Shown in pieces: positions 4,161 to 55,404 of a stretch of DNA of 64,000 nucleotides. Every line of letters starts with the position of its first letter. Positions within the stretch are counted from its first letter, which is position 1. The stretch covers positions 57,023 to 121,022 of the IMG/VR virus record IMGVR_UViG_3300045988_166195; one strand, 5' to 3'. Below the pieces are notes generated by a model, which was not told the origin of the DNA, made no database searches, and saw only the letters and a list, made by a program, of their open reading frames with translations. Position numbers and translations under genes: made by a program. This stretch comes from a virus.

Positions 4161-4237
4161 CTGTTTCTATAGAAGTCACTAACTATGCTAGAATGACTGG
4201 TACACCAGCCTAATCGATTGAAAGATGGAGGAAAGAT

Positions 4238-8011: not shown

Positions 8012-8097
8012 TCATATCGAATCTGCTTGTATGCGAGCACATTTGGCACAAAGTGTGATACCCTCGTATACGAGTGCAAACACAGTGTGCTTGCCGG

Positions 8098-8137
8098 TAC
8101 CTGCAAACATTCCCAATGATGCAGGTACCGGCTCACA
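8098..8137 (+). promoter_or_regulatory. 13-bp perfect hairpin gccggtacctgca-N14-tgcaggtaccggc with CAATGATG in loop, just upstream of 8168 gene
   Basis: Seen directly. Preceded at 8063-8074 by the palindrome CTCGTATACGAG, related to the GGTATACGAG promoter motif of the paralog array. Confidence 0.35.
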
Positions 8138-10444: not shown

Positions 10445-10618
10445 CATCGATTACGTGATCGCATAGAACAAGAGGTGCGGTGAGGGTTATCCTTGCCGCA
10501 CCTCTTTTCTGTGTCTCTGCGCTTCTGTTTCTGATATGATTAGGTTGGTGAATCAACCAAATCGAAAAGATGCAAGAAAGACGTAAGAGACAGAAGAGAA
10601 AGGTGAAAGGTGGTGCAT

Positions 10619-13600
10619 ATGGCTTTCGGACGAAAGAAATCCGGTGGAGCAGCGCCTCGTGAACACGGTAGCCAAGCGTGGAACCAGTTGGGTAAGCAAG
10701 ACGAGCTTGACTCGCTGGCCTATCAGGATGTGCACGGCGACCAGCAACTAGAACGTAGCGACATCGAGGCGAAGATCTCTCCGGTGTCGCGTGAGGTCGC
10801 ATCGGCTGTTGCCGGTGTGCTTATCTTTATCCTCGTGTGGATGCTGTTCTCGTTCGGCACGATGGGTGTGGCCATGGGCCGTGACGCTCTGTGGCGTTCG
10901 TCTGTTCCGAGCTACGCGGTGCAGAACAAGGCTCTGACGAAGGAGCTGGGCAAGCCTGTGTGGAGCGAAGGGTGTTTCTCTCCAGCTCTCGAAACAGGTG
11001 AGATCGATACGTCCGATGAGACGTGCTATGAAGCTGCTGAGGATGTTCCTGAGCCACAGTGGCACGTGGATGCCGTTGCAGCAGAACAGGCTGAGCGCGA
11101 TGTAGAACTAGCGGATCGCCCAAGCGGTGCGATGGGATGGATGCTGTCATTCGATTGGCTGAAGTTCATTGTGTCGTCGATCGCTGGTCTTGTCGTGTGG
11201 GGCTTGCTGCGTATGCGACTGATGCGCAACTTGAAGGCTCAGAACTTGATGCGGGATACGACCGACATCAACCAATACAAAAACGACCAGCACGTGGCAC
11301 TTCCTGAAGAAGTGCGTGAGCGTTTCGATGTGGTGCCTGACGTGGGCGCGCACACAGGTGTAAGTGCGACGACGCTCATTTCCCACTCGATGGTCTCGAA
11401 CAAGGGCATCAAGAAGGTGGCATTTGCGCAGCGAGCAACTGAGGACATTCTCGACGAGGATGGCGATGTGGCTCTGTTCGAGGGAGAAGCTCTCACGGAC
11501 GATAACGGCGACGTTGTGACCAAGATGGTGCCGATGTTTGACGAAGAGTTTGGTACAGCTCTGTGGAACGCATCGGGGCTACCAGATAACAAGCAACTGC
11601 GTCGTCGTTTGGATCCTCGAAACGTGCCGTACAACCCAGGGAATGCCAACCGAGACAAGCTCAAGGGTTTCAACACCCTGGCTGATCTGGTGAACGGTGA
11701 GTGGGAACTTCCGATGTATGAGCCGCAGCGTCCTGCTGGCGTCTACTACGTGGATACGGCTCCTGCGAACACCATGATCCTAGCTATGACTCGTGCTGGT
11801 AAGGGTCAGACGTACATTGAGCCGATGCTCGATATTTGGATGCGTCAGAAGCGCCCGGATAACATGGTGATCAACGACCCCAAGGGCGAGCTCTTGGTGA
11901 AGAACTATGTTCGTGCCACCATGCGTGGTTTCCAGGTTGTGCAGTTCAACCTCATCAACGCCATGAAGACTGATATTTACAACCCGCTTGGAATGGCTGC
12001 TGAGGCTGCACGCGAAGGTGATCAAACCAAGTGTGCTCTGTATGTCGAGAACATCGCAGATGTCTTCTTCCCTGTGGATGGCGCGGAAGACCCTGTGTGG
12101 CCGAACGCTGCGAACAACGCGTTCAAGCGTGCGGCATACGGCCTCATCGATTACTACCTCGAAGAAGAACATCAGCTGCGTCAGTACGCGATGCGTCACG
12201 GTATGGATCAGAAGGTTCTGGAACAGAAACTCGATGCCATGTGGGGTAAGGTGACGCTCTACAACTGCTACCAGTTGTTCGTGCAGCTCACGAGTAAGAA
12301 GCGTAAGTCTCCGATGACTCAGGTGAACGAGCGCATTAAGAGTGGCTACTACGATCAGCAGTCGTCCGATCCTGATGAAGTCGACGCTCTGATCGAGCAC
12401 GACAAGATGCAGGCTGAGCGTATTGAGTTCTTGTGGGAAGGTAAGCCGGAATCTGACTTGCTCACCTTGTTCTTCAACGCCACTGAGGCGTTGCCTCAGT
12501 CGACGATGCGTACGTTGATCGCTAATGCGAACAACGCACTGCGTGCAATGGCTGGAGCTGAGAAGATGCTCGCATCTGTGTACGGTATTGCTATCACGGC
12601 AATGTCGTTCTTCACGGATCCGACGATCTCGACGTTGACCTCTGGTACTCCGTCACAGAACACGGATCTTGGCGGTCTGTCGTTCCCTCGTCGCTTCGGT
12701 GTGCGTTTCGCTCAGAACTTCACCAAGCGAGACGGTCTCATCGGTGCTCAGGCGAAGTGGGATGCGTTCGATGATCCCGAGTTGAAGCACAACCTGGGTA
12801 AGGATTTCGAGCACGAAGACACAGTGGTGCGAGAAGGATGGGCTCGTTATTACTTCGACGGTAAGTTCCCACATGACGTTGCCTACTTGCGACTGCGTTT
12901 GTTCAACCCCCAGACGGGTGTGTTGCTCAAAACGTTCTACTTCCAGTTCACGAAGGGTTACCAGCTCTCGTTGAATGGTCGTAAGTTCGTCAAGGATCCG
13001 ATCACGGGTAACAAAATCATCCGTAATGGCGTTCTCGTGGAGATGGTGAAGGGTAAGAACGGGGTTCTTGTTTCTGGTCACCTGAGTTATCCGGCAACAC
13101 GTCTGTTGGATAAGGCGGGGAGCCTCAAGACTGTACGAGAGGATGTCCCTGCGATTATCCTGTCGTCGGTTCGTTATTCGGAGCAGCCGAAGGCTGTGTT
13201 CCTGGTGACGCCACCTCACTTGATGAAGTACGCGAAGCTCGTACTGATTCTTGTGAAGCAGTTGGTGGATCTGAACTTCGATAAGTCGTACATGACGAAG
13301 GCGAACCAGAAGCCGCTCTACAAGACGCGCTTCATGCTCGACGAGCTCGGCAACTTGCAGTCCGAGGGTCACGGTATCTCGGGATTTGAGACCATGCTCT
13401 CCATTGGTCTGGGTCAGGAGCAGCAATTCACGCTGATTCTTCAGACGTTGCAGCAGGCTCGTGACGTTTACGGGGACAGCGTAGACAAGATCATTCAGGG
13501 AAACGTTGCCAATATCGTCTTCTTGAAGTCGACGGATGACACGATGATTGAGACGTTGGCCAAGATGTCCGGTACTCGCCACCGTGCGGTGCGAGACTCT

Positions 13601-14665
13601 AAGACGGTGACTCAGGATACTGAGCGTCTCATCGAAGGTCTGAACGTTGAGGGCAAAGTGTCGTACACGATCAGCGCGAAGGAAGAAAGTGTCATTGGGT
13701 ACAACGATCTGGCATTCTTGCCGGAACGTAACTCGATCATCTTTTCGGCAGGCATCTCGCCTATCTGGAACCGCAATGCGGAGATTCTTCCTATGTCGTG
13801 GCGCTTGTTCAGCAACACGATCAAGCATCCGGGCCGCGAGTACTCACTTCAGACGATTCCGACTCTCTCGTCGGCGCTTGATTTCGATGTGCGTCTTAAC
13901 CAGCCGAACTTCATGAAGATGCTGGATAAGCGCATCGAGCAAGCCGCGAATGCGGCTGAGGCGATGGAGTTGTACCAGGAGGCATACGATCTGGATGATT
14001 ATGGCATCTCGATCCTGGATCCCGATGTGTACTCGGCTGAGGTCATGGATCTCATTGCCTCGATCGAGGAAGAGCGCAGGGGCCACGACATGGAGAACGA
14101 AGAGTACGACATGGACAGTGACGAGGCTCTACGTGCTCAGTTGGGATCTGGCTACGATATGTTCAACGAGGCTGACGAGATTAACGAAGATGTCCGCGAG
14201 GATCTTGCTGCTCGTCAGGAGATGTTGGCCGATCGAGCGAAGATGCGCTACGCGGAAGGTCAGATCAGCCGTGAGCATCTGATGAGTGAGAGTGGACAGG
14301 TGTTGCACCATCTCGATGGTGACATCGTTGCTGCGTATCGTGAAGCGAAGCACGCAATGGTGGATGACGTTCGGTTCTTCCGAACAGACGAGAACGGTTC
14401 GCTGTGCTCGCTGGATGGAAAGGTCTACATCAGCCAGGGTGTGTCGAGCGATGAGCTGCGTACTCTCCAAACCGCATCGTCCGATGAGACGAGCGGTGTG
14501 TATGCGGATGATGAGTCGATCTCTGAGATCGCGGACCTGGGTTCGTGGCGAGTCCATGATGCGTTCTATAGGTTCTTGCACGGCCTGGAGTCGTGGGAGG
14601 ATCTCGGCGGAGGCACTTTCGATCGCGCTATTGCACGAGTGTTCGAACGTCGAGAGAACGAGTGA
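10619..14665 (+). CDS. Type IV secretion coupling protein-like ATPase (VirD4/TraG/TraD family) with ~700-aa C-terminal extension
   Basis: Two N-terminal TM helices. Walker A MTRAGKGQT. DPKGEL motif (MVINDPKGELL). Walker B-like RFMLDELGNL. Q-rich stretch typical of T4CPs. Acidic/aromatic C-terminal 300 aa with no known motif. Confidence 0.65.
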   Translation: MAFGRKKSGGAAPREHGSQAWNQLGKQDELDSLAYQDVHGDQQLERSDIEAKISPVSREVASAVAGVLIFILVWMLFSFGTMGVAMGRDALWRSSVPSYAVQNKALTKELGKPVWSEGCFSPALETGEIDTSDETCYEAAEDVPEPQWHVDAVAAEQAERDVELADRPSGAMGWMLSFDWLKFIVSSIAGLVVWGLLRMRLMRNLKAQNLMRDTTDINQYKNDQHVALPEEVRERFDVVPDVGAHTGVSATTLISHSMVSNKGIKKVAFAQRATEDILDEDGDVALFEGEALTDDNGDVVTKMVPMFDEEFGTALWNASGLPDNKQLRRRLDPRNVPYNPGNANRDKLKGFNTLADLVNGEWELPMYEPQRPAGVYYVDTAPANTMILAMTRAGKGQTYIEPMLDIWMRQKRPDNMVINDPKGELLVKNYVRATMRGFQVVQFNLINAMKTDIYNPLGMAAEAAREGDQTKCALYVENIADVFFPVDGAEDPVWPNAANNAFKRAAYGLIDYYLEEEHQLRQYAMRHGMDQKVLEQKLDAMWGKVTLYNCYQLFVQLTSKKRKSPMTQVNERIKSGYYDQQSSDPDEVDALIEHDKMQAERIEFLWEGKPESDLLTLFFNATEALPQSTMRTLIANANNALRAMAGAEKMLASVYGIAITAMSFFTDPTISTLTSGTPSQNTDLGGLSFPRRFGVRFAQNFTKRDGLIGAQAKWDAFDDPELKHNLGKDFEHEDTVVREGWARYYFDGKFPHDVAYLRLRLFNPQTGVLLKTFYFQFTKGYQLSLNGRKFVKDPITGNKIIRNGVLVEMVKGKNGVLVSGHLSYPATRLLDKAGSLKTVREDVPAIILSSVRYSEQPKAVFLVTPPHLMKYAKLVLILVKQLVDLNFDKSYMTKANQKPLYKTRFMLDELGNLQSEGHGISGFETMLSIGLGQEQQFTLILQTLQQARDVYGDSVDKIIQGNVANIVFLKSTDDTMIETLAKMSGTRHRAVRDSKTVTQDTERLIEGLNVEGKVSYTISAKEESVIGYNDLAFLPERNSIIFSAGISPIWNRNAEILPMSWRLFSNTIKHPGREYSLQTIPTLSSALDFDVRLNQPNFMKMLDKRIEQAANAAEAMELYQEAYDLDDYGISILDPDVYSAEVMDLIASIEEERRGHDMENEEYDMDSDEALRAQLGSGYDMFNEADEINEDVREDLAARQEMLADRAKMRYAEGQISREHLMSESGQVLHHLDGDIVAAYREAKHAMVDDVRFFRTDENGSLCSLDGKVYISQGVSSDELRTLQTASSDETSGVYADDESISEIADLGSWRVHDAFYRFLHGLESWEDLGGGTFDRAIARVFERRENE

Positions 14666-15378: not shown

Positions 15379-15558
15379 GGCGGTTCTCCTGATTCTATTA
15401 GGGGTTGTTTGTATTATTCAGTGTATCATAAATAGTCGGTTATATGTATGCGGGTTCCCTTGTGTTTCCAGTCGAAATGCGGGTTTTTGTCGGGTAGAAT
15501 GGAGGGCGTAATACCCGATCGATCCAGTGGATCGAAACTCCAGGAAGGAGAATGCGTT

Positions 15559-18500
15559 ATGCAAACGCGCAATGCCGGACTCCGGCGTTACATGTACGAG
15601 CATATGATCGCTCGCACAATCAATCGAACCTCGGAGATCACGAAGACTCCGATTCTTGTATCTCAGGGTCGACGCCTGAGGGATCTCATGGAAGAGCGTC
15701 TCAATGAACAGGGTCGTTCTTTCAACGATGGTGATCTACCTGTTACCGATGCGCTGGATGCTATCCAGAGCATCATGGAAGAGCATGTTCCCGGATACAA
15801 GCCTTTGTTCCAGCCTGCCGATACATCGAGTAAGGGCTACAAGGTTCTATATGAAGAGTTCAGGAACATGGTCGGTCTGAATGGCTCTGCTGGCGCGGCT
15901 GGTCCGCGTCTGCCGATTTCTCCGTATGATCCCCGGTGGGGGAGCCGTCGCACTGTGAAGCAGGCTGGGACCTCTATCCTGTACGTGCTCGATGGCGACA
16001 TCGCCGCATACGCAGACGGTAAGCCAAGCAACATCGAGAAAGCGACGACCTCAGAACTTACTCTGTACCGCTTGACTGATGAAGGGAAGGCCAAAGAGGC
16101 AGGCCGCGCTCTCAGCCTTGATGATGTCTCGGGTCTCACCGAGCTCATGGGTCGCATGTCGACGGCTGAGTACAACGAGGTTCGTCAGTGGGTGCTGGAC
16201 GGTGCTCGCAACCCTGAAACGGGGCGCTACAACGCCCGTCAGTTCATGAGCACTGATGCATTGGCTCGTTCCCGAGCTGTGCTGGACATGCTCGCAGAAG
16301 AGGGCATTCCGTACACGATCGAGAAGGATCTTCGCCCTGGTCAGATCCGTGCGCGTTTGACGGGTACGAATATGACGGTGCGCCTGACTGACACCCGAGA
16401 CAAAGAGCAGTGGGTGGGTCGTGTCTACGACAACGGTGCAACTCTGTACTTCTCCACGACGGCTCGTCGAGACAACAAGCAGGTGGCCTACACGCCAACT
16501 GTTGACGAGGTGTGCGACCTCGTGCGTGTTGCGCTGGGTCGACCAGTGGAGCGCAAGGATGGTAAGGGCCTCGTGGGCCGAGTGGGCGAGCGTCAGACCA
16601 GCAAGGGTAAGACGGTTCAAGAGTCGTATCTCTCCACTGGAACACTGACGAGTGCGTACAAGGACATGCCCGGTATGAACGGTGAGCAGATCGTGATTCG
16701 TCGTCAGATGAAGGAGCGTTCTGCGTCTTCGCGGTTCTTTGCCGATACGCCCGAAGGTCGTGAACAGGCATCCGGTTTCATTACCGGTGCTGTGCACAGC
16801 GCTCGTCACAATGTGATTGAGCAGCTCGATGTCGATGGTCTGATCCAGCAGTTCCGCGATCACGAGGATGCTGCCCGTGAGGGTACGTACATCCCTATGC
16901 TGTCTGGTGATCCTGATCTTGCGGCGGTTGGCCGCGCGTACTGGGATGTGCTTCGTGGCGCTGAGACAACTCTGCTGAAGCCTGAGGCTACGCGAGCTGA
17001 GTACGCTGAGGCGACGGGTCTGCTTGACGACATGGATCAAGAGAGCGATCTGTCGGGCGTTCACGACATGCTGGCCGGTTCCGTGGCGTACACGGGTACC
17101 CCGGAAGAACGTGTTCGTGCGCATCTTCGGGATCTTCTCGATACCCAGATCGGTATCGATGAGCCTATCGACTCTGATGACTTCGTGTTCGATCCAGTGC
17201 GCGTTGCTCGTTACATGACGAGTGAACACGGCCAGTGGCGTAACAACGATGATCTCGTGGCTGCTATGCGCAGCGTTGGTATGCCTCAGGAGAAGATCGT
17301 CGGGGAGTCGTTCTATTCCAACACGTTCCGCGATCGACTGATCACCTTCGATGAGTCCACGGCTTTGCCGATGGAGACGGTCGAAGATGAGTTCACTCAG
17401 TCGATGCTTCAGGTTGTGTCTGACACGCTGGAGTCCTGCGCTGTGACGCCTGGTTCTATCCGCGTCGACGCCAACGGCGTTGTGGAGTGGACGGGCTCCA
17501 TCATGCGCTCGCAGACAGGTAAGGAAGAGCCCGTGAGCGGTACGATCGGACAGATCTTTGCTCGCGGTGAGAACGGTGAGATCATCACACGGTTCAATTC
17601 CGGTAACGATCTGATGATCGTGCCTGGTTTTGACGCACGTGTGGTGGCACAGAAGCCTGGAGAGAACAAGTCCCTCGAAGAGCGCACCCGGCTGATCGGT
17701 TACGAGCAGCAGATGAGTGACGCGATTCGATACCGAGTTCAGGCTGATGTGCTCTCAGGTCGTTCTCGTGTGGGTGAACCCGCCTCGTTGAACAGTGTGT
17801 ACCGTCGTCTGTCGGATACGCGCCATCGCGCGGATCACTACGAGCGCGCTCTCGAAGAGGGTATGGATCGGAAGATCCTTGATGCCATTCTTGCTACCGA
17901 AGCGCGTCGTGTGCGTTACCCGAACGCTTTGCGTGATGGGTCGACGATCGACGCTGACTTCCGTGCATCTCGTGCTCGGGAACAGGGTATTGGTGGCGAT
18001 CCGGCCAACGACACGACCATGGATCCGTGGGTGTTGACCGGCGGTCGCAACATGTCGTTGCTCAGCGAAGAAGCCGATGGCTACTTCGATCCGATCATGA
18101 CATCGGGCGGTGTGAACCAGGGCGTGACTCGTTATCTGGTGTCCGGTGCGCAGGTGAATCCTGATGGATCGATCGTACGTTCTGATAAGAACGACCGTGC
18201 ACCGCTGATGTTGACTGAGCAGGCTCAGCTCATGAGCTACGATCCGTTCGATCGTCAGCAGATGACGACTTCTAATCTCATGAACGCATCGTCTGTGACG
18301 AAGCCTGTGGGCACGGCGTTCATGACTGCTGGTGGTTGGACGATGGAGGACTCCATCGTTGTCTCGGCTGACTTTGCCAAGCAGTACCGCGTTCGCGGCA
18401 CTGACGGTCAGATGCGCGATCTCATCGTTGGTGACAAGATCTCCGATATGCACGGCAACAAGGGTGTTATCTCGCTCATTGTTGATCGCAATGCCGATCT

Positions 18501-21009
18501 GTCTCCTGATGAGATTGAAGAGTTGCATGGATCGACTGACATGATGACGCTTTTCCGGGAGAATCCGGGTTTGGATGTCGTCATGGCACCGTTCAGCGCT
18601 GTGTCTCGTTTCAACGGCGGCTCGGCACGTGAGGCGATGCGGCAAACGTCTGCGCTTCATCTGCCAAACGGCACAACCGTTGAGGCAGGTATTGGTCAGG
18701 TGTCGTTTATCGGCACGCATATGACCGTGGATGCGAAGACGGCTGCATACGATGAAGCTGCGATCCGAGCTGGACAAGGTCGTAAGGCGTCGTCTCAGCT
18801 TGCATGGGCCTTGCAGTCCCAGGGCTGCGATAAGGTGTTGGGGCAGATGTATGGTGGCAACCTGCAAGCTCTTGCGCAGCTGCGTGAAATGGCTCTGGTG
18901 TGCGGTTTGGACATCGAGCCTGATGGCACCTTGCGCGATGGTCATGATGATCTTGCTGTTGGTGGGCAGCGCCGTCTCATCGAGATGGGCGATGTGCCGC
19001 TGACTGAACGTGGATCGTTCGACGTGCGTCGCGTTCGTAACGATTTCGCGTCGCTGATTGGTGACGCTGGTGGTGACATGGAGATTCCGTTCCCGCTGAC
19101 GATGCCAACGGGCGCTCGTACGCCTCATGCAACAGACACCACCTGGCGTGTGCCGGTGCTGAGTTCGCATCTGCGATCGGGCCAGGATCTGGATGACGGT
19201 ACGTCGACGGTCCATGATTACACGTATCGTTACCTTGCGATCCGTGAATGGTCGCTGCGCTACAAGCATGCGGCTGATCGCGCTGCGTCTGGTGAGCTGA
19301 CGGGTAAGGAGCTTTCCGATGCTCGTCGAACGATGGCTGAGGCTATGCACCGTGCGCAGACGGCTTACGATGGCATTGCGCAAGACATCATGCGTCGCCG
19401 GTTTACCGGCAAGCGCAATGTCTTCAAGGAAGGTCTCATGGCTTCGCGTCTGCCGCACTCGGCTACCGCTGTGTGGACGGGTGATCCTCGCTTGGACATC
19501 GACCAGGTTGGTGTTGGCCCGGAGCTGGCGAAGAAACTACACTTGCGCGATGGTGACTACGCGCTTGTGTGGCGTGATCCTGTTCTGCGTGATGCGGGTG
19601 TCCGTTACATGCGTGTTGCGATCGATGACCGTCTCACGGGTGTGAGTGTGAATCCAAACATGGTCAAGTGCTTCGACGGCGACTTCGACGGTGACTCTGT
19701 GGCTGTTGTGAAGCTGGGTGATGGTCCGGCACATGAGCAAGCGCTGGAGCGTCTGACTGTCGAGGCTAACCTCATCGATCTCGGTCAGAGCATGGACGAC
19801 GAGGGTCGTTACCCTCTTGCGATGCACAACGCGCTCGATGTGAAGGTGTCGCAGCACTACGACTCTCGTCATGCGGATGCGATGGATGAGGTTCATCAGC
19901 GCGCCAACGATGCGTACTACGATCTGACTGAAGGGGATGCTACTCGTGAGCAGTTCCTGGAGGCGGGTCGTGATGTCGTTGATGCAGCGTCGTATATGTA
20001 CCGTGATGCGCTTCAGCATCAGTACGGTGAGGCTGTGTTGTCGTTTGGTTCCGTTCAGGAGCACATGAAGTCTGTGGCGGCTGCGTGTATTGAGACGGGA
20101 GCTAAAGGCTCGCCTAAGAAGATGCTGGATTACGCTCGGTACATCGGCTATGACCCTGAGAACCAGGTGGATCTGGTGACCACGTGTGTGACTCGTGGGG
20201 AACAGCAGGGCACCATGTTTGCGACGGCTGTGAAGTCGTTTGGTACCGGTGTTGCCGGTACGTTCTCGCAGCGTGGTGTGCGAGCTCTTCGTAACGATGA
20301 GCTCAAGGCTGTGTTGGAGCTGACCTACCCGGTGACGCAGAGTATTTTGCAGGCTAAGCACGACCCTGTGGATGCTCGTCATCGCTATGAGTTGCTGATG
20401 GGTCCGGCGCGAAGCTTGTGGCGTGGTCAGATGATTGCACAGGATGCCAACGGTGTGTGGAACACTGTGACGGATGACGATCATAAGCCGGTTCAGGCTA
20501 CCAAGGATCAGTGGGTCGCTGTGTTCTCGCAGTTCTATGGCGATGATGGTCTGGGTGTGGCTGTGAACAGTGACAACATCACGAAGGTTGCAAATGCGCT
20601 CAGCGATAGCAACGGGGTGATGGTGAATCTGGAGGACGAGAAGGTCATTGAACAGCTCGCTTCTCCGATGGATCGTCTGGCTTACGGCGGTGACTTCACC
20701 ACGATGCAAGCTCTGGCTGAGACTCGGGCAAACTTGTTCGAGGGTCGGTGGAACGTTACGTTTGCACCAGCTCGTGTGCGTGAGGTGCTGGAGGCTGATG
20801 TGGAGACGCAAGCTGAGGCACCGGTGATCGCCATGGAAGACACTGTGGCTCGCGTGGACCGTGATGAGAAGATCGGTCGACGTAAGTCGACATCGTGGGC
20901 TGTCCCAGTTCGCTCGAACACGGGTGCCAGCGCAGCTGAGCGTTACGGTTTGACGACACAAGACAACAGTGAGACAGACAAGTCTGTCGATGATGGTTTC
21001 GAGCTGTAA
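15559..21009 (+). CDS. Giant single-chain multisubunit-type RNA polymerase (fused beta-like + beta-prime-like, two double-psi beta-barrels)
   Basis: Beta hallmark VGDKISDMHGNKGVISLIV followed by NPGLDVVMAPFSAVSRFNGG (cf. E. coli beta GDKMAGRHGNKGVIS ... NPLGVPSRMNIGQ). Beta-prime hallmarks ALVWRDPVLRDAGVRYMRVA (cf. NRAPTLHRLGIQAF) and VKCFDGDFDGDSVAVV (NADFDGD catalytic loop). ATG 15559 with GGAAGGAG RBS; the ORF track's upstream start 15448 is less likely. Ends ...KSVDDGFEL. Confidence 0.75.
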   Translation: MQTRNAGLRRYMYEHMIARTINRTSEITKTPILVSQGRRLRDLMEERLNEQGRSFNDGDLPVTDALDAIQSIMEEHVPGYKPLFQPADTSSKGYKVLYEEFRNMVGLNGSAGAAGPRLPISPYDPRWGSRRTVKQAGTSILYVLDGDIAAYADGKPSNIEKATTSELTLYRLTDEGKAKEAGRALSLDDVSGLTELMGRMSTAEYNEVRQWVLDGARNPETGRYNARQFMSTDALARSRAVLDMLAEEGIPYTIEKDLRPGQIRARLTGTNMTVRLTDTRDKEQWVGRVYDNGATLYFSTTARRDNKQVAYTPTVDEVCDLVRVALGRPVERKDGKGLVGRVGERQTSKGKTVQESYLSTGTLTSAYKDMPGMNGEQIVIRRQMKERSASSRFFADTPEGREQASGFITGAVHSARHNVIEQLDVDGLIQQFRDHEDAAREGTYIPMLSGDPDLAAVGRAYWDVLRGAETTLLKPEATRAEYAEATGLLDDMDQESDLSGVHDMLAGSVAYTGTPEERVRAHLRDLLDTQIGIDEPIDSDDFVFDPVRVARYMTSEHGQWRNNDDLVAAMRSVGMPQEKIVGESFYSNTFRDRLITFDESTALPMETVEDEFTQSMLQVVSDTLESCAVTPGSIRVDANGVVEWTGSIMRSQTGKEEPVSGTIGQIFARGENGEIITRFNSGNDLMIVPGFDARVVAQKPGENKSLEERTRLIGYEQQMSDAIRYRVQADVLSGRSRVGEPASLNSVYRRLSDTRHRADHYERALEEGMDRKILDAILATEARRVRYPNALRDGSTIDADFRASRAREQGIGGDPANDTTMDPWVLTGGRNMSLLSEEADGYFDPIMTSGGVNQGVTRYLVSGAQVNPDGSIVRSDKNDRAPLMLTEQAQLMSYDPFDRQQMTTSNLMNASSVTKPVGTAFMTAGGWTMEDSIVVSADFAKQYRVRGTDGQMRDLIVGDKISDMHGNKGVISLIVDRNADLSPDEIEELHGSTDMMTLFRENPGLDVVMAPFSAVSRFNGGSAREAMRQTSALHLPNGTTVEAGIGQVSFIGTHMTVDAKTAAYDEAAIRAGQGRKASSQLAWALQSQGCDKVLGQMYGGNLQALAQLREMALVCGLDIEPDGTLRDGHDDLAVGGQRRLIEMGDVPLTERGSFDVRRVRNDFASLIGDAGGDMEIPFPLTMPTGARTPHATDTTWRVPVLSSHLRSGQDLDDGTSTVHDYTYRYLAIREWSLRYKHAADRAASGELTGKELSDARRTMAEAMHRAQTAYDGIAQDIMRRRFTGKRNVFKEGLMASRLPHSATAVWTGDPRLDIDQVGVGPELAKKLHLRDGDYALVWRDPVLRDAGVRYMRVAIDDRLTGVSVNPNMVKCFDGDFDGDSVAVVKLGDGPAHEQALERLTVEANLIDLGQSMDDEGRYPLAMHNALDVKVSQHYDSRHADAMDEVHQRANDAYYDLTEGDATREQFLEAGRDVVDAASYMYRDALQHQYGEAVLSFGSVQEHMKSVAAACIETGAKGSPKKMLDYARYIGYDPENQVDLVTTCVTRGEQQGTMFATAVKSFGTGVAGTFSQRGVRALRNDELKAVLELTYPVTQSILQAKHDPVDARHRYELLMGPARSLWRGQMIAQDANGVWNTVTDDDHKPVQATKDQWVAVFSQFYGDDGLGVAVNSDNITKVANALSDSNGVMVNLEDEKVIEQLASPMDRLAYGGDFTTMQALAETRANLFEGRWNVTFAPARVREVLEADVETQAEAPVIAMEDTVARVDRDEKIGRRKSTSWAVPVRSNTGASAAERYGLTTQDNSETDKSVDDGFEL

Positions 21010-21022
21010 GACTCGGTGAGAG

Positions 21023-21063
21023 GGGCGGGTTGTTTCGCGTGGTTGAAGCAACCCGCTTCCTCT
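21023..21063 (+). terminator. Imperfect GC hairpin after RNAP gene (gaggggcgggttg...caacccgcttcctc)
   Basis: Read in sequence. The trailing T-run is weak. Confidence 0.3.
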
Positions 21064-21094
21064 TCATGAGCCGGTGTATCTTGATATGGCAGCG

Positions 21095-21125
21095 ATAGTA
21101 CAATATACTGATATATGAGTCGAAA
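21095..21125 (+). promoter_or_regulatory. Degenerate copy of conserved upstream motif (GTACAATATACTGATATATGAGTCGAA)
   Basis: Aligns with GTGCGATATACTGGTATACGAGTCGAA upstream of paralog 3. Confidence 0.3.
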
Positions 21126-21153
21126 ACCCGTTCCAAGAAAGGAAATATTTATC

Positions 21154-22365
21154 ATGTCTGTGTCAGCTATGTCAGAGTGGATGGCGAAGTTCCCCCAGGA
21201 TTGGGTCGAGATTCGTTATGGTCTTGAGGCTCATGAGTGGGCTGGTTCGCTTTCTGATCGAGTGATGGCGATTATCAATAAGAATGACCCCGCACGAGAA
21301 GATCGGGTTAATGCATTGCTGCGTGACAATGCTGTGCTTCTTGAAAGAAGGTTTCAGGGTCACAGGCGTCCAGGACCTGACGAGGACTTTATTGATTATG
21401 CCGAGTTCCGTGATGCCATTTCTCATGTTGTAGAAAATGGTATTTCTATTAACGATGAAACCTATTCGCAAATCCATTATGTGGATAGTACATGTGTGCG
21501 TTCTCCGACAAAGGCGCTGCTGCGTCCGCATCATGAGGTATATCCCAATGCCAACGTACAGGCTTTTTATCGTCGGTCTTTGCGCGAGGGGAAGCCTTCA
21601 AAACCTTCGGATGGATATATCAAAAATGTGTATGGTCTGAGAGGCGATGAATGGACGGGCACATCAGTCGATGTGGGGGCGATCATCAATGATCGCTCAT
21701 CGAGGATAGCATCGATAAGGGATCAGCGTGTCAATGATTTCTTGCGTGATCAGGTGGCTGTTTTCGAGATGGGCATGGAGAAGCTTGAGGCCAAGAACGC
21801 AACATATAACGATATGGGAGTAGGTGCTCGTGCTTATGGTTATGATCTGCGTGATGCGATTGAGGAAGCCGTAGAGAATGGTATTTTGATTAATGCTGAA
21901 ACGATGAACGCTATCAAGAGGGTAGAGCATGATTACGTGACTCCATATGTCGGGGAATCGTTGGCGAACCAATATGACAAGTTGTATGAGCTTAATGAAG
22001 CACGGAAACATCATCATGAGATTGCGCCATCGTTTGCATCATCACATGAAAAGAAGTCTGAGCCAGCGATTCATTCGGTCATTACCGGTGGAAGTGGTCA
22101 TGGTAAAGAACAGGTTCAGCTTGCTAACGTTTTGAGCGGACGGATGCCCTCGATGGGTCGCGATACAGACGGCCAGTCTTTGGCACCGTCTACCCCGTCT
22201 CAGGGTTCTCGTCAGGGGTCTATTGGGGCAGCGCTTCCCGGTAGTTCCATTACTGTTGGTCGTCGGACGCCTCGTGTGTCGCCCACTGCTGGTACGGCTC
22301 GTCGTATGGGTATTTCTGAGTCTCAGGTACAGACCCCAAGCGTCGATGACGGTTTCGAGCTGTGA
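21154..22365 (+). CDS. Tandem-repeat protein, paralog 1 of 3; C-terminus ...RRMGISESQVQTPSVDDGFEL
   Basis: Internal repeats RYGL(E/D)xHEWxG(S/T)LSDRVxAIINKxDPxxExRVNALLRD and a second helical repeat (GILINxE(A/T)MxAIKRVE). Pro/Ser-rich linker, conserved C-terminal 40 aa. RBS aaagga-N8-ATG at 21154. Confidence 0.65.
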   Translation: MSVSAMSEWMAKFPQDWVEIRYGLEAHEWAGSLSDRVMAIINKNDPAREDRVNALLRDNAVLLERRFQGHRRPGPDEDFIDYAEFRDAISHVVENGISINDETYSQIHYVDSTCVRSPTKALLRPHHEVYPNANVQAFYRRSLREGKPSKPSDGYIKNVYGLRGDEWTGTSVDVGAIINDRSSRIASIRDQRVNDFLRDQVAVFEMGMEKLEAKNATYNDMGVGARAYGYDLRDAIEEAVENGILINAETMNAIKRVEHDYVTPYVGESLANQYDKLYELNEARKHHHEIAPSFASSHEKKSEPAIHSVITGGSGHGKEQVQLANVLSGRMPSMGRDTDGQSLAPSTPSQGSRQGSIGAALPGSSITVGRRTPRVSPTAGTARRMGISESQVQTPSVDDGFEL

Positions 22366-22392
22366 TCGCCATGTGATCATGGGTTGACACCA

Positions 22393-22440
22393 TGAAGAAG
22401 CAGGTCTCGCCTTCGGGTGGGGCCTGCTTCTTTGTCTGTA
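22393..22440 (+). terminator. Rho-independent terminator (gaagcaggtctcgccttcgggtggggcctgcttc + tttgtctgtat)
   Basis: Hairpin plus T-run read directly between paralog 1 and paralog 2. Confidence 0.5.
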
Positions 22441-22476
22441 TACGTTGCAATGGTGCGATATACTGGTATACGAGCC
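22441..22476 (+). promoter_or_regulatory. Conserved upstream motif ACGTTGCAATGGTGCGATATACTGGTATACGAGCC (element-specific promoter candidate)
   Basis: Near-identical copy at 23391-23427 (ATCGTTGCAATAGTGCGATATACTGGTATACGAGTCG). Related pieces occur at 21095, 8063, 54980 and 63091. Confidence 0.5.
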
Positions 22477-22509
22477 AAACACGTGGCGATGATGGAAAGG
22501 AAGGGTGTT

Positions 22510-23322
22510 ATGACGCTTTATTACGATCAGGAAATCAAGGAGTATACCGATGCCGGGATCAGGCGATACAAAGGTCTTGATCCACATGAAGAGCTGGATG
22601 CACCAACCGAGCGGTATGGTCTTGATCCACATGAGTGGACAGGAACATTGGCCGATAAGGTGACAGCGATTATCGGTAAAAATACGCCCGAGAAGGAAAC
22701 GCATGTGAATGCGTTGTTGCGCGATGCGGCAAAATCATTTATGAAGAATGCCAAATATGCGGAAATGAATGCCCATAATGATGAAACTACCTTTAAGAAG
22801 GTAATGTCTGTCAACGGTGATGATTTGCGTGCTGCTATGTCCGAAGCGTCCTTGGGCGGCATTCTTATTAACGATGAAGCGATGGATGCTATCAAACGTG
22901 TGGAAAAGCGTTATCTTTCATATTGGAGTTTTGATTTCGGTTTTGATTCTCTGACGCATGCATACGATGAGCTGTATAAACTTAATGATGCGCGAGCTCA
23001 TTTCCGTGAGAGTGCGCAAGTGATGCGAGGTGCTGCGAATACCCCAGCGATTTCAAATCCAGAGTTTGATCGTTTCGCCCCGCCTCAGGGTTCACGTGTG
23101 ACGACGGTTCCGCCGCCTGTGCGGTCTGCGCCCTCTATCCCGTCTGCTCTTTCTATGTCCGCTGTGTCCACTCAGCGAACTGGTTCTATCCAGGCTGTGC
23201 TTCCAGGCAGTGGTATCAAGGTGAGTCGAGCGGCACCTCATGTTCCGCAGACTGCCCGTCGTATGGGTGTTGTTGAGTCACAGGTGCAGACTCCGAATGT
23301 TGATGACGGGTTCGAGTTGTGA
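22510..23322 (+). CDS. Tandem-repeat protein, paralog 2 of 3; C-terminus ...RRMGVVESQVQTPNVDDGFEL
   Basis: Same repeat units as paralog 1 (YGLDPHEWTGTLADKVTAIIGKNTPEKETHVNALLRDAAK; ILINDEAMDAIKRVEKRY; FDRFAPPQGSRVTTVPPPVR). Start ATG 22510 after ggaaaggaagggtgtt. Confidence 0.65.
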   Translation: MTLYYDQEIKEYTDAGIRRYKGLDPHEELDAPTERYGLDPHEWTGTLADKVTAIIGKNTPEKETHVNALLRDAAKSFMKNAKYAEMNAHNDETTFKKVMSVNGDDLRAAMSEASLGGILINDEAMDAIKRVEKRYLSYWSFDFGFDSLTHAYDELYKLNDARAHFRESAQVMRGAANTPAISNPEFDRFAPPQGSRVTTVPPPVRSAPSIPSALSMSAVSTQRTGSIQAVLPGSGIKVSRAAPHVPQTARRMGVVESQVQTPNVDDGFEL

Positions 23323-23349
23323 CGCTGACGTGATTATGTGATGGGGTAG

Positions 23350-23392
23350 GTCTTGCTTGAAAGCGGGGCCTACTTCATCGTTTTGCCATGTT
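23350..23392 (+). terminator. Weak hairpin + T-rich tract after paralog 2
   Basis: ggtaggtcttgcttgaaagcggggcctacttcatcgttttgcc read directly. Confidence 0.25.
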
Positions 23393-23427
23393 ATCGTTGC
23401 AATAGTGCGATATACTGGTATACGAGT
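23391..23427 (+). promoter_or_regulatory. Second copy of conserved upstream motif (TTGCAATAGTGCGATATACTGGTATACGAG)
   Basis: 31/33 identical to the copy at 22441-22476. Confidence 0.5.
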
Positions 23428-23457
23428 CGAATGCAACTAAATGAAAGGAAGATGGTC

Positions 23458-24786
23458 ATGTCGACGATATGGTATGAAGGCCCCACCGATGGCAACATCG
23501 AGGGGCGTTACGGTCTCGATTCGCACGAGTGGGTGGGGTCGCTGTCCGATAGGGTGGCGACGATCATTGACAAGGATGATCCTTGGAAGGAAACTCATGT
23601 GAATGCGCTCTTGCGTGATGGCGTGGAGTTCTATGCGCAGAAGTCGCAGGATCATCCAGAATTGAGTGATGATGATCAGATGCGCGATGCTATCTCTTAT
23701 GTGGCGCATAGCGGTGTTCTCATCGATGATGAGACTCTGTTGGCTCTTACGGATGCGGATGACAAGTACGTCATCCCGTTTGGTGCAGAGTCTTTGATGT
23801 ACGAATACAACAAGGTGCATCAGCCTGATTACGGACGGATTTATCAGCGTCAGCGTGATGCTGCGCAGTTGCCGTACGCGGAGGCAACAGACGAAGAGAT
23901 CAAGGAGCACTATGGCCTTGATCCACATGAGTGGAAAGGGAGTCTTGCCGATAAGGTGATGGCGATTGTTAACAAGAATACGCTTGACAAGGAAACGCAT
24001 GTGAATGCGCTTCTACGTGATGGTGCACGGCTGTTCGCTCAGAATATGGAAGCTCAACCGGTATCGGGTGTGAGTGAAGATGAGATGAGGTACGCGGTGG
24101 AGTCTGGTGGCGATGAACTACGCGCTGCCATCTCTGACGCATCGTGGGCTGGTGTTCTCATCAACGATGAAGCGATGGAAGCCATCAAGCATGTGGAGAA
24201 GGAGTACATCACTGAGTTCGGTGGAGACTCTCTGACGCATGCGTATGATCAGATGCGTAAGCTGAACGATGCACGCGCTCATTATCGTGAGTCTGCGAAG
24301 GAGATGCGTGGCTCTGCGCCTGCTGCGCCTGCTGCGCCTGTTACCCAGGCACCTTCGAGCTTTGATCGTTTCGCCCCGCCTCAGGGTGCTCGTGTGACGA
24401 CTGTTCCGTCGCCTGTGCGCACTGTTGGGTCTGCTCGGTCTACTCAGGCAGCTCAGTCTGCACTGTCTGTGCCTCCTATTCCGCAACCTCCGAAGACGCC
24501 GGGATCCCAGGTTCGCACAGGTGGTCCTGTGCGGGTGGGTAATGTCGCCAAGGACTGGCTGGCTGCGAATGGTCGTGACGAGAAGGGTCGGCCTCTTGCG
24601 TCTACATCTACGCCGTCTACGCCTCAGGTTCCGGCTCAGCGATCGGGTTCGATCCAGGCTTCGCTTCCTGGTAGCGGTGTCACCGTGGGTCGATCGACGC
24701 CGCGTGTGCCACCCACTGCCCATCGTATGGGTATCCCTGAGCCCCAGGCGCAAACCCCAAGCGTTGATGACGGCTTCGAGCTGTGA
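23458..24786 (+). CDS. Tandem-repeat protein, paralog 3 of 3 (two copies of each repeat unit); C-terminus ...HRMGIPEPQAQTPSVDDGFEL
   Basis: RYGLDSHEWVGSLSDRVATIIDKDDPWKETHVNALLRDG and HYGLDPHEWKGSLADKVMAIVNKNTLDKETHVNALLRDG. Pro/Ala/Ser-rich linker. ATG 23458 has the best RBS spacing. Confidence 0.65.
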   Translation: MSTIWYEGPTDGNIEGRYGLDSHEWVGSLSDRVATIIDKDDPWKETHVNALLRDGVEFYAQKSQDHPELSDDDQMRDAISYVAHSGVLIDDETLLALTDADDKYVIPFGAESLMYEYNKVHQPDYGRIYQRQRDAAQLPYAEATDEEIKEHYGLDPHEWKGSLADKVMAIVNKNTLDKETHVNALLRDGARLFAQNMEAQPVSGVSEDEMRYAVESGGDELRAAISDASWAGVLINDEAMEAIKHVEKEYITEFGGDSLTHAYDQMRKLNDARAHYRESAKEMRGSAPAAPAAPVTQAPSSFDRFAPPQGARVTTVPSPVRTVGSARSTQAAQSALSVPPIPQPPKTPGSQVRTGGPVRVGNVAKDWLAANGRDEKGRPLASTSTPSTPQVPAQRSGSIQASLPGSGVTVGRSTPRVPPTAHRMGIPEPQAQTPSVDDGFEL

Positions 24787-24828
24787 CGCGCTTGCGGGGA
24801 GATAGAAAGCAATAGAAAGGAGGACAAG

Positions 24829-26490
24829 ATGGCTCGTCCACCTCGTCAACTTCCAGCGCCTCGTTACGGGGGTGAAGTTGGTCCGCAGAAGGTTCAAGAC
24901 GAAACTGCGACAATGGCTGTGACCAAGGAGCAGATTTTCGACAAGAAGCCTGAACCTGTTCACGCGGTAGAGCCAAAGCCTGCGCTCGATTGGGCGCAGC
25001 AGCTGAGGCTCGATATGCGCTATCACGCTGATGGGTATCTTCACGCTCTCAGCCAGATAAATCTGAAGACCATGAAGCGAAAGGCTGACATCGCTTCTCG
25101 CATGAACGATCTTCAGGGTAAGCACAAGGCTTATGCGTCGATGATGGTGCTCAGCGCATTGGTACCGTTGAAAGACGGCGTATCGATGTCGGCTGTGGTT
25201 GAATCTGTTGGCATGGGTGTCACTATGTGGATGTTGTCGCCCAACTTCCGCCAACAGGTGAAGTCATTCGCTCGTGATGCGCGTATGGCTGTCGAAGACA
25301 TGGCTGAGGCGCGTCGACGCAGTCAGTCGAAACAGTTGCATGATAAGGCCGATCAACATCGAGAGAAGCATGGTGGTGAATTGCCGCCCTCTCTGAAGCG
25401 TCGTCTGGAGCGTATCGAAGCGAAGGAGCGCAATGGTCGCATCCCGTTCAATGAAGCGAGTGCGGCTTTGACGCATCTTGGTCTGAGCGAAGCGATGTTC
25501 AACCAGATGCGGCAACCGGGTGTGGATCCTGTTGAGGTTCAGGAAGGCTATGCGCACCTGATGGAGCGCTTCTGGGATGATGTCCACAAGGACGGCTTGG
25601 ATCCCGAAAAGGTGAACACCGTCAGTCGTATGCTCATGGGCCAACGGATGCGTTATGAGCCCCACTGGGCGAATGCGTTCGTTGAAACCGCTCATGGCGA
25701 GGTCGATATGGACATGGTGGAGACGGTGGACGCTCAGACGGGTGAACCCCATCGAACGTGGACGGGTATCTGGTCCACGCGCATGGGTGAGCCTATCGTG
25801 GGAGGTTCTTTCACTGTCCGTCCTCCGTACAACGAGATGCAGCATGAGTTGTCTCTGAGTACGTGCATGGCTCGTGAGATGGAGCGTGCAGCGCTGAATG
25901 GTAACATTGCGGATCTGAATGAGTCGCTGCTTGCCTACGGTTCTGCGTGGTCTGTTCGAGACAAGAACCTGGACGTGCACAGCGTTCCTGGTGCGATGGG
26001 TGAGAAGATTCGTCGAGCTCGTCGTGGTCTCGATGCCATGGAATTCGATGGTTTTGACCGCGATCAGCAGCGAGACATCTATGCGACATCGTTCGTTCAC
26101 GCCATGGACATGGTGGCGAAGGCTCACCCGGACATCGAGCGTCACTGGGCGCAGCAGTACGGTTCTCAATGGCGATCGGAGATGCGAGACTTCGCAGCGA
26201 CGCCAGAGGAAACATACAACCGGTGGCAACGGGGGGAGTTTTACTCTGATGCACGTGAATCTCCAGGGCATGACAATGCCCATGTGGATCCGCACACGGA
26301 ACGAATGAGGGAAGATTCCAAGCGTCGACGCAGCGCGTACAACCGTGCGCGTGACAACCAGGAGTACAACGCTCATGAGACATCGGCGTTCAAGGCTGAA
26401 GACTTTGAACTCAATGATGTCGACGACGAGTTTGACATGGGTGGGTACGATCGACCTAATGACAACGATGGTTTCGAACCATCTCTATGA
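24829..26490 (+). CDS. Hypothetical 553-aa protein; C-terminus ...DMGGYDRPNDNDGFEPSL (variant of shared tail)
   Basis: RBS gaaaggaggacaagATG. No recognised domain. Charged, helical composition. Confidence 0.6.
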   Translation: MARPPRQLPAPRYGGEVGPQKVQDETATMAVTKEQIFDKKPEPVHAVEPKPALDWAQQLRLDMRYHADGYLHALSQINLKTMKRKADIASRMNDLQGKHKAYASMMVLSALVPLKDGVSMSAVVESVGMGVTMWMLSPNFRQQVKSFARDARMAVEDMAEARRRSQSKQLHDKADQHREKHGGELPPSLKRRLERIEAKERNGRIPFNEASAALTHLGLSEAMFNQMRQPGVDPVEVQEGYAHLMERFWDDVHKDGLDPEKVNTVSRMLMGQRMRYEPHWANAFVETAHGEVDMDMVETVDAQTGEPHRTWTGIWSTRMGEPIVGGSFTVRPPYNEMQHELSLSTCMAREMERAALNGNIADLNESLLAYGSAWSVRDKNLDVHSVPGAMGEKIRRARRGLDAMEFDGFDRDQQRDIYATSFVHAMDMVAKAHPDIERHWAQQYGSQWRSEMRDFAATPEETYNRWQRGEFYSDARESPGHDNAHVDPHTERMREDSKRRRSAYNRARDNQEYNAHETSAFKAEDFELNDVDDEFDMGGYDRPNDNDGFEPSL

Positions 26491-26890: not shown

Positions 26891-26999
26891 TATCGGTCGG
26901 TTAAGCATCGGTGTGTTCCGATATGTTAGACTGATACACGAACATAATCAGAAAGCGGCTATGTGCCGTTACACGTGGGGAAAGGATGAGAGGTTGGAT

Positions 27000-42675: not shown

Positions 42676-42813
42676 GTTTTGGTCTCCTTCGTGTTATGTA
42701 TGCGGATTGGATTATCCTGCTACACCAGTATAATCCATCCTTTCCTGGCGTATGCGTGTATGATTGTTTGTGAGAGAATCTCACGTACACGTAACATCAG
42801 AAAGGAGGGTGTC

Positions 42814-43299: not shown

Positions 43300-43353
43300 T
43301 GAGATTGTCACTGCCCACTTACTAACACCCAGCCATACGGCTGGGTGTTAGTT

Positions 43354-55125: not shown

Positions 55126-55404
55126 TGTCGTGCTTGTAGTGATCGCGGCCACAGTGCTGTTTCGGTGTTGCGCGCGATGATTTACCAATATATGTTGGAG
55201 ATCACAATCGGCCTAGTTGTCTGTATACGCATTGGTGTTGCATGTGTGTTCTTGTTCGTGTATCCTGTCGTTGACAGGTTGATTCGGGTTCGTGGAAGTG
55301 AACCGAGATCTGGGACGATGTGGGACCGCACAACGTAAAACGGACGGGAGCTGGTGGGACGGCTCCCGTTCGTGTTTCTGGGGAGAGAAGTCGCATCACA
55401 ATAA

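Follow-up and report, generated by a model that had tools for sequence, protein, structure and literature searches.

What does a short sequence do that recurs, almost unchanged, in front of neighboring genes of an element that encodes its own RNA polymerase (RNAP)? The sequence in question is a motif of about 33 nt at positions 22441-22476 of a 64,000-nt stretch (positions 57,023 to 121,022 of IMG/VR virus record IMGVR_UViG_3300045988_166195), which in its full length we call the window. It stands upstream of the second of three paralogous genes (paralogs 1 to 3) that follow the RNAP gene. The element appears from its sequence to be a circular conjugative plasmid, probably of ~121 kb, because one contig wraps around the window. 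With somewhat more confidence than doubt, we conclude that the motif is best explained as a set of host-type promoters under a common element-encoded repressor, which would constitute a backbone regulon across a family of actinobacterial conjugative elements. The original prediction, made from the letters alone, had taken the motif for a transcription signal just upstream of genes, a view that the sequence comparisons uphold, and had proposed that it is a promoter displayed on hairpins, a view that they do not. The prediction would have failed had the motif been confined to the paralog array, and it is not confined to it.

The copies at the paralogs are as had been predicted. A 30-nt sequence, TTGCAATRGTGCGATATACTGGTATACGAG, occurs exactly at 22445-22474 (paralog 2) and 23397-23426 (paralog 3), with 0 matches expected in the window, and a degenerate copy, TTGATA-N17-TATACTGATATATGAGTCGA, precedes paralog 1 at 21081-21123. 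Each paralog forms its own transcription unit, in which a terminator-like hairpin is followed by the motif and then by a leader with the ribosome-binding site and ATG, which lie 34 to 45 nt downstream of the motif copies. The longest open reading frame (ORF) of paralog 1 begins at 21115, inside the predicted operator; its true start is likely the ATG at 21154 after AAAGGAA, giving 403 aa. The 3' half of the motif is enriched in the window (CTSGTATACSAG with at most 2 mismatches, 21 matches versus 4.9 expected; TATACGAG, 5 versus 0.8), and the 5' half, searched as a 13-mer with at most 2 mismatches, shows no overall enrichment there (5 matches versus 4.8 expected). A first alignment of the paralog 1 promoter with those of paralogs 2 and 3, which required a 9-nt deletion, was dropped, as a related locus (L008) has GCAATAGTACGATATACT in a paralog-1-type promoter. 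A near-identity (megablast) search of positions 20000-26000 against plasmid and phage collections returned no match, and Rfam and tRNA scans of the window found nothing.

The 3' part of the motif has the anatomy of a promoter of the sigma-A type. For Corynebacterium glutamicum, the sigma-A consensus is TTGNCA with the extended -10 element GNTANANTNG, and the -35 element is poorly conserved in the group (PMC3917453). Both GATATACTGG, found at paralogs 2 and 3, and the family-wide GATAGACTGG fit every specified position of GNTANANTNG, a consensus that comes from Corynebacterium, whereas the element studied here is placed with Actinomyces and its transcription starts are predicted ones. The promoter core is G-A-TATACT-G-G, with a weak -35 element 17 nt upstream. 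Every intergenic site in the window has a -10 hexamer of the form TAnnnT (TATACT at paralogs 1 to 3, TAGACT at the gene for an HU-like protein, TGc plus TAGAAT at the Clp-like gene, TGa plus TACCCT at the gene starting at 8168, here called the 8168 gene, and TATACT/TATAAT at 42713). Each copy contains or adjoins a canonical actinobacterial -10 element, often of the GnTAnAnTnG or TGn-extended form and spaced normally from ribosome-binding site and start codon, and we predict that host RNAP would use TATACT in this way. The -35 element is good at paralog 1 only (TTGATA-N17; 10 of 12 matches in a promoter scan) and weak at paralogs 2 and 3 and in related promoters (TCGTAA, TCGTCA, CTGTCA, ATGTTA). 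In Actinobacteria, -35 elements are often weak or unrecognizable.

Related promoters also bear on how the 5' part should be read. In dozens of paralog promoters from metagenomes, a -35-like hexamer (TCGTAA, TCGTCA, CTGTCA, TTGATA, TCGATA) lies constantly 17 nt from TATACT, and the stretch between them varies among related elements (GCAATAGTGC, GCAATAATGC, GTGATAGTGC, and GTAATAGTGC; GCGATAGTAC in the paralog-1 type). The metagenome scan with GATATACTGRTATAYGAG returned 115 stretches, about half of them unrelated chance matches, as the database size predicts. A pairing of TTGCAA as a -35 element with TATACG, 16 nt away, was considered and dropped, since TATACG has no T at -7 and the sequence in the place of TTGCAAT differs among related promoters (TTGTAAT, TCGCAAT, TTGTGAT, TAGCAAT, CAGCGAT). 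Because the hexamer keeps its 17-nt spacing while the sequence in the place of TTGCAAT, within the spacer, varies, TTGCAAT is not the -35 element and TATACG is not the -10 element. By this comparison, the 5' third of the motif, TTGCAATRGTGCGA, is promoter spacer, in which a second protein box, weaker and related to the CAATGRTG array described below, may lie.

The -10 element is at the same time the beginning of a 20-bp dyad, an inverted repeat of a 10-nt half-site (consensus roughly T-N-K-A-C-T-S-R-T-A) whose left half doubles as the -10. Dyads of this kind, which stand before about nine genes of the element, occupy about -12 to +20 in the promoters of the Clp-like gene, the 8168 gene, the three paralogs, the HU-like gene, and a divergent gene pair at 42.7 kb. 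A symmetrized matrix trained on distant loci only (relatives with ~45% identical RNAP, from Streptomyces, Arthrobacter, and others) puts the same eight window sites first, and four of them (the three paralogs and the 8168 gene) exceed the 95th percentile of the null maximum, 15.6. Intergenic sequence makes up only 10.2% of the window but holds seven of the eight sites (binomial probability of ~1e-6 by our estimate); these seven score at least 12.5, and all other intergenic gaps score 10.9 or less. The highest score in the window (21.8) belongs to paralog 3, with both halves at the 100th percentile, and the paralog 2 dyad scores 18.3, with its right half at the 99.9th percentile against the left-half matrix. 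More generally, when a matrix is built from only the left halves of distant sites, the reverse-complemented right halves of the window sites fall at the 96.6th to 100th percentile. In the same test, more than 90% of the sites in the distant Clp and 8168-like classes lie above the 99th percentile, and the HU and D classes are weaker. The eighth site, at 6107-6126 in the Clp coding sequence, has no counterpart at that position in distant loci and could be a chance match or an internal roadblock site. A piece of the motif expected before the Clp gene at 4185-4200 is present (ACTGGTACACCAG) but slightly displaced, at 4196-4208. The palindrome predicted before the 8168 gene is perfect, CTCGTATACGAG at 8063-8074 within the dyad, and the 13-bp hairpin predicted with it has its arms at 8093-8105 and 8120-8132; its loop includes CAATGA, and the TG falls in the stem. 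The intergenic matrix scan of the window did not find the shared dyad at the promoter of the operon that encodes the type IV coupling protein (T4CP) and the RNAP.

The dyad is also maintained in relatives. A 16-mer pattern derived from the window sites alone (at most 3 mismatches) has 102 matches in 64 distant loci, compared to 30 to 41 in Markov shuffles, and 73 of the 102 fall in three promoter slots (those of the Clp, 8168-like, and HU orthologs) that make up 3% of the sequence. The consensus in distant loci is caTGATAGACTttCGACTGATcTatCAG in the Clp slot (TGaTAGACT and then TCGACTGATCTATCAGATGA), TTGCC-N18-TAGGATaCTCATAAACCAGGCGA in the 8168-like slot, and cgaTAGACTGGTTTCTAAG in the HU slot (33 loci). 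The 8168 gene of the window is orthologous to the gene that follows Clp in the distant loci, where the dyad occupies the same slot. These AT-rich sites are kept in genomes of 66% GC, with flanking proteins that have diverged to 27 to 60% identity. The best conserved part is the left half, TAKACTGRTA.

What distinguishes the dyad from the promoter with which it overlaps is its indifference to position and orientation. In the Clp slot, a separate extended -10 element (TGcTAGAAT in the window, TGaTAGnnT in relatives) lies 2 to 5 nt upstream of the dyad, the left half of which (ATGACT, TCGACT) cannot be a -10 element; the distance from dyad to start therefore differs by 7 to 11 nt between slots. 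In the 8168-gene slot, the better half-site points away from the gene (19 minus-strand versus 9 plus-strand matches), and the half-site scores agree. The dyad at 42713 serves a divergent pair, with TATACT on the minus strand toward 41635-42675 (minus) and TATAAT on the plus strand toward 42814-43299 (plus), and is thus orientation-free. An orientation-free site that overlaps the -10 element or the start looks like the operator of a dimeric repressor. We suggest that a dimeric DNA-binding protein encoded by the element would occupy the dyad and block RNA polymerase. With the repressor missing or titrated away, as might happen right after entry into a new cell, the block would be lifted and the strong promoters would all be active at once, to be shut off later. 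Such control would make these genes a plasmid-backbone regulon like those of KorA/KorB or kil-kor. The motif itself would then be an ordinary promoter-operator arrangement, the unusual biology lying in the element, and it would define a coordinately controlled set consisting of the Clp-like ATPase, the 8168 gene, an expandable paralog array, the HU-like protein, and a gene pair that includes a LysM-like protein. The family of actinobacterial conjugative elements to which this gene set belongs is widespread, and the candidate operator offers a handle on the set, as DNA bait for the regulator, in reporters of induction upon entry, and for the question of host versus element RNAP.

Several observations weigh against a repressor. 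No helix-turn-helix, ribbon-helix-helix, or GntR domain was recognized by Pfam in the ORFs scanned in the window and in 10 kb upstream of it (of the ~121-kb element), and the HU-like protein was the sole DNA binder recognized among them. Sites of the HU class have a weak right half of the dyad and a fourth paralog type has none, retaining only TATACTGATA, and the only strongly conserved symmetric pairs are C5-G16 and T6-A15. Plasmid pGKT2 of Gordonia, a more distant relative, was found to have neither the dyad nor an annotated regulator when both were looked for. In addition, the element encodes an RNAP with an intact DFDGD motif, and phage RNAPs that need no sigma factor are known to start at short AT-rich promoters.

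Some of these points would suit a strong core promoter, composed of extended -10 element, discriminator, and initial transcribed sequence, that is kept for high expression, with an incidental dyad and no dedicated repressor. The superior conservation of TAKACTGRTA is expected under this explanation, as are the poor right halves of the HU class and the fourth paralog type and the mere two conserved pairs. We nevertheless regard it as unlikely, given that in paralogs 1 to 3 and in the Clp and 8168-like classes the likeness of right halves to reverse-complemented left halves is far greater than chance predicts, that the Clp-slot motif lies downstream of a separate -10 element and shifts by 7 to 11 nt relative to the start, and that the better half in the 8168 slot is antisense to the gene. 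We think it quite unlikely that a motif of 16 to 20 nt is instead a double-stranded promoter of the element's fused beta/beta'-like RNAP, with host RNAP transcribing the T4CP-RNAP operon and the element RNAP then the Clp, 8168, paralog, and HU genes, in a phage-like early/late cascade. The 1853-aa protein with its DFDGD motif is encoded, the motif is AT-rich and highly conserved across the family even in 66% GC hosts, and the T4CP-RNAP promoter is without it; the Clp-slot motif, kept though it is not a sigma-A -10 element, could mark tandem host and element promoters. However, neither dyad symmetry nor orientation independence is expected of a directional promoter, every site has a canonical sigma-A -10 element, and the offset of the motif to the -10 element or start codon varies. 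The literature searched contained no promoter for this RNAP family, whose homologs are annotated only as hypothetical proteins. A bolder version, which we hold to be decidedly unlikely, is that TAKACTGRTA...AG is recognized by a polymerase that accompanies the DNA into the recipient and activates the motif genes independently of the host. If true, this would be a conjugative-plasmid counterpart of the phage N4 virion RNAP, and the VDDGFEL tail shared by the RNAP and the paralogs (see below) could be the mark of proteins that the coupling protein or Clp-like ATPase receives for transfer.

The remaining two explanations fare worse. A single-strand promoter of the Frpo, ssi, or N4 type, active during transfer with its elements on a hairpin, would suit a conjugative element (MobL relaxase and T4CP), as well as the palindromic central 12 nt, the positive GC skew all along the window, and the real plus-strand hairpins that elsewhere have CAATGR in or near the loop. 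Frpo/ssi sites form a stable, extended, imperfect hairpin in the transferred strand, rebuilding -35 and -10 elements as a duplex, and the N4 virion-RNAP promoter is a short hairpin with a 5- to 7-bp stem and a 3-nt loop. The likeness to these systems consists in a transferred element, here with its own RNAP, and in the palindromic motif center; in contrast to them, the motif has no significant single-stranded structure, no compensatory variation, and canonical double-strand promoter elements, and as a site it is orientation-free. Five copies (paralogs 1 to 3, Clp, and HU) fold as single-stranded DNA no better than shuffles (z of -0.6 to +0.7), and the copies at the paralogs are not in significant hairpins. 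Mismatches between the arms, such as the central G/G in paralogs 1 to 3, are uncompensated. Among 89 distinct dyad sites, complementary cells number 390, versus 436 expected under column independence, and there is no compensatory covariation; this looks like a pair of half-sites that each fit the consensus and not like a maintained stem. Adding that one of the cited loops is unconserved though its stem covaries, and that the loop motif is not enriched in distant relatives, we give this explanation very little credence. Least credible of all is a functionless remnant of the tandem duplication behind the paralog array, to which the 30-nt identity of the paralog 2 and 3 copies might point. The dyad ranks high at four promoters in the window outside the paralog array and in orthologous slots of relatives with RNAP only ~45% identical, which refutes a passive remnant, and in related elements the core of the paralog promoters persists while the flanks diverge (a comparison subject to the ascertainment bias of an exact-match search).

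The proposed repressor-operator arrangement would have precedents. In IncP-1 plasmids (RK2/RP4), KorA and KorB bind short palindromic operators at several backbone promoters and coordinately repress transfer, maintenance, and establishment genes. The element resembles them in having repeated palindromic sites at backbone promoters, often over the -10 element, and in a possible second box, CAATGRTG, which forms an array elsewhere and occurs singly near promoters and so recalls KorB/ParB sites. It differs in operator sequence and host phylum, no KorA or KorB homolog was found, and the case here is built from sequence. Closer in host are the Streptomyces plasmids pIJ101, pSN22, and pSAM2, in which GntR-family Kor/TraR proteins exert kil-kor repression. 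Shared features are an actinobacterial conjugative element, strong promoters, and an inverted repeat for an element repressor (a putative one in our case), whereas transfer here involves a relaxase and T4CP rather than TraB, and no GntR gene was recognized in the parts of the element examined. The dyad core, ACTGGT-N2-ACCAGT, is itself similar to GntR-type operators (CTGGT...ACCAG for FadR; the dre site ACTGGTCTAGACCAGT for DasR), with a spacing 2 nt shorter than that of dre.

Although the motif copies tested do not fold into significant hairpins, the window does contain hairpins in which pieces of the motif had been noticed. The three that were cited are real (z of -6.7, -4.0, and -10.8), but the recurrence of sub-motifs in their loops is partly chance. 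The hairpin in the 8168 leader lies outside the promoter and operator; the corresponding leaders in distant relatives are short, with no obvious counterpart by eye (they were not folded). In the iteron region, the piece TTGCAATGATGCG lies at 54979-54991 in the hairpin at 54968-55001, as predicted, and a 15-nt identity, CGTTGCAATGRTGCG, links the site at 54977 to the paralog 2 and 3 copies (chance probability of 2e-4 to 5e-3 by our estimate). Conservation is uninformative for this hairpin, because the region is 99 to 100% identical in close relatives; its loop is possibly a separate protein-binding box. The piece GTGCAATGAAGCAT, expected in the loop of a nested hairpin at 63061-63146, does lie inside that hairpin (63058-63147), but the loop sequence at 63091 is not conserved, and the loop closes to 6 nt in the energy model. 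In relatives 80 to 87% identical (L075 and L073), the inner stem shows compensatory changes and the loop reads GTCTGA or TTTATT instead of AATGAA. Since the loop varies while the stem is kept by compensation, the GTGCAATGAAGCAT loop is a chance resemblance. The nested hairpin is a conserved structure in its own right, possibly a terminator or part of a transfer origin (oriT).

The sequence CAATGRTG is over-represented in the window (18 occurrences versus 7 expected, 16 of them on the plus strand) and forms an array near its end, interleaved with GCGCTTTGTTGGCC repeats and including a 62-bp tandem unit. The boxes of the array are conserved in relatives 80 to 87% identical. It could be a centromere-like site, an origin, or a transfer-origin site. 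The sequence comparisons suggest a separate family of binding sites that may also occupy the paralog 2 and 3 spacers and the hairpin at 54968-55001. The variant CAATGRWG was considered as a hairpin-loop motif, with 9 of 24 occurrences in loops with stems of at least 6 pairs, versus a null rate of 8.6%. It was rejected: many plus-strand matches fall in coding sequence (as Ile-Ile codons of genes on the minus strand), the cases counted had themselves served to define the pattern, one of the cited loops is not conserved, and CAATGRWG is not enriched in distant loci. The coordinates of these features and of the main genes are collected in Table 1.

Table 1. Promoters, dyads, hairpins, repeats, and selected genes in the window
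Feature	Position	Strand	Details
MobL-type relaxase	1065-3392	+	
Clp-like gene promoter	4186-4212	+	TGc-TAGAAT extended -10, 4186-4194; dyad ATGACTGGTA/CACCAGCCTA, 4193-4212; score 13.4
ClpB-like ATPase	4238-8011	+	with LAGLIDADG intein
Dyad-like site in Clp coding sequence	6107-6126		TCTACTCGTG/TACCAGTCTT; no -10; score 14.7, inside null range
8168 gene promoter	8056-8078	+	TGa-TACCCT; dyad TACCCTCGTA/TACGAGTGCA, 8059-8078; score 15.9
Hairpin in 5' leader of 8168 gene	8093-8132	+	13 bp, perfect; loop aacattcccaatga; z = -6.65
758-aa protein of unknown function (8168 gene)	8168-10444	+	
Type IV coupling protein	10610-14665	+	
RNAP	15448-21009	+	1853 aa; Rpb2-domain-6 and Rpb1-domain-2 signatures; DFDGD motif
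Terminator-like hairpin before paralog 1	~21020-21066	+	counterpart of 22396-22436
Paralog 1 motif copy	21081-21123	+	-35 TTGATA, 21081-21086; 17-nt spacer; -10 TATACT, 21104-21109
Paralog 1 dyad	21104-21123	+	TATACTGATA/TATGAGTCGA; score 21.3
Terminator-like hairpin closing paralog 1 unit	22396-22436	+	just 5' of motif
Paralog 2 spacer half	22445-22458	+	TTGCAATGGTGCGA; about -13 to -26 from predicted start; exact copy
Paralog 2 promoter core and 20-bp dyad	22459-22478	+	TATACTGGTA/TACGAGCCAA; -10 TATACT, 22459-22464, inside GATATACTGG
Terminator-like hairpin before paralog 3	~23345-23385	+	counterpart of 22396-22436
Paralog 3 motif copy	23397-23430	+	spacer box TTGCAATAGTGCGA; -10 TATACT, 23411-23416; dyad TATACTGGTA/TACGAGTCGA, 23411-23430
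HU-like gene promoter	26924-26946	+	TGt-TAGACT; dyad TAGACTGATA/CACGAACATA, 26927-26946; score 12.5; right half weak, 96.6th percentile
Dyad between divergent genes	42713-42732		in 28-bp palindrome GGATTATCCTGCTACACCAGTATAATCC; score 12.8
Iteron-region hairpin	54968-55001	+	loop CGTTGCAATGATGCG, 15/15 identical to paralog 2/3 spacer box; z = -3.97
Nested hairpin	63058-63147		outer stem CCACCGGATAAC/GTTATCCGGTGG invariant; z = -10.8
CAATGRTG array (YCAATRRTGRCC)	63664-64000	+	~7 copies plus CAATAATG/CAATGAAA variants; on to ~64075 past the window (L074)

Two further observations concern promoters and dyads outside the set described above. The T4CP-RNAP operon has an extended -10 element of its own, TGATATGAT, followed by a different palindrome, TTGGTGAATCAACCAA (10527-10556). 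In L022 (~19380-19440) and in the same slot of ~40 Streptomyces-type loci, a divergent region contains a dyad whose core, CTCGTATACGAG, is identical. The small gene adjoining it appears leaderless (TATACT 6 nt before the ATG) and encodes a conserved protein of 130 to 135 aa with no Pfam match and no homolog in the window, which could be an autoregulated regulator in those elements. By eye, it had been thought Phd/YefM-like, an assignment that we dropped as Pfam did not support it and no homolog is present in the window. At the divergent pair of the window, 42814-43299 (plus) is likely a real gene, for a membrane-anchored protein with a LysM-like C terminus, and has the ribosome-binding site GAAAGGAGG followed by ATG; the overlapping minus-strand ORF 42841-43311 looks spurious.

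The closest genome record to the element is an uncultured Actinomyces metagenome-assembled genome, and identical proteins occur on ~121-kb contigs from human oral and gut metagenomes. On the plus strand, the RNAP gene is followed at its 3' side by the three paralogs, two further unknown proteins, and the HU-like protein. In the other half of the window, where most genes lie on the minus strand, UvrD-, MgsA-, SNF2-, RecJ-, and D5-primase-helicase-like proteins are encoded beside the iteron region. Pfam returned nothing for the paralogs, the 8168 gene, or the proteins labeled W12, W13, and W25. Relatives with ~45% identical RNAP, in Streptomyces, Arthrobacter, Kribbella, and others, share the gene order relaxase, W3, Clp, 8168-like, T4CP, RNAP, W12, HU. 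Fused RNAP homologs with 39 to 44% identity are found on plasmids of Streptomyces, Rhodococcus fascians, and Gordonia (pGKT2, L197), and remoter ones (23 to 29%) on plasmids of Staphylococcus and Lactococcus; none of them has an annotation beyond hypothetical protein. By sequence, the best match of the RNAP to a solved structure is a "tape tail measure protein" chain (8h2n/8h2m; E = 4e-7), ahead of Rpb1 chains. We found no paper in the literature searched that describes this family of actinobacterial conjugative elements, which carries a giant single-chain RNAP. In two metagenome contigs, L004 and L006, the RNAP gene is divided into two ORFs (438 plus 1370 aa and 747 plus 1086 aa, respectively), which could reflect frameshifts or assembly errors; the downstream promoters are unchanged.

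The RNAP and paralogs 1 to 3 all end in ...VDDGFEL* (20986-21009, 22342-22365, 23299-23322, and 24763-24786). Other acidic-aromatic tails are NDGFEPSL in W12, GGYEFVG in W13, and IDEPEF in W3. Among distant loci, EPDLEL closes the W13-slot protein of one from Streptomyces (L013), and in others the product of the gene upstream of HU has the ending ...DFEL or ...GFEF. With a coupling protein and a Clp-like unfoldase encoded alongside, the shared tail suggests that these proteins have one docking or secretion signal in common. Across positions 1-64000, every 2-kb interval has a positive GC skew, and AT skew is mostly negative, regardless of gene direction, which suggests a strand asymmetry from unidirectional replication or transfer. 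Finally, the iteron region (54560-55150), where TGTAGCAG is repeated many times in either orientation and where an inverted pair of GCGCATGCGCGCACA-type repeats and two copies of GGTATTTCAA also lie, is probably the replication origin, because it adjoins the D5-like primase-helicase gene (52429-54162).

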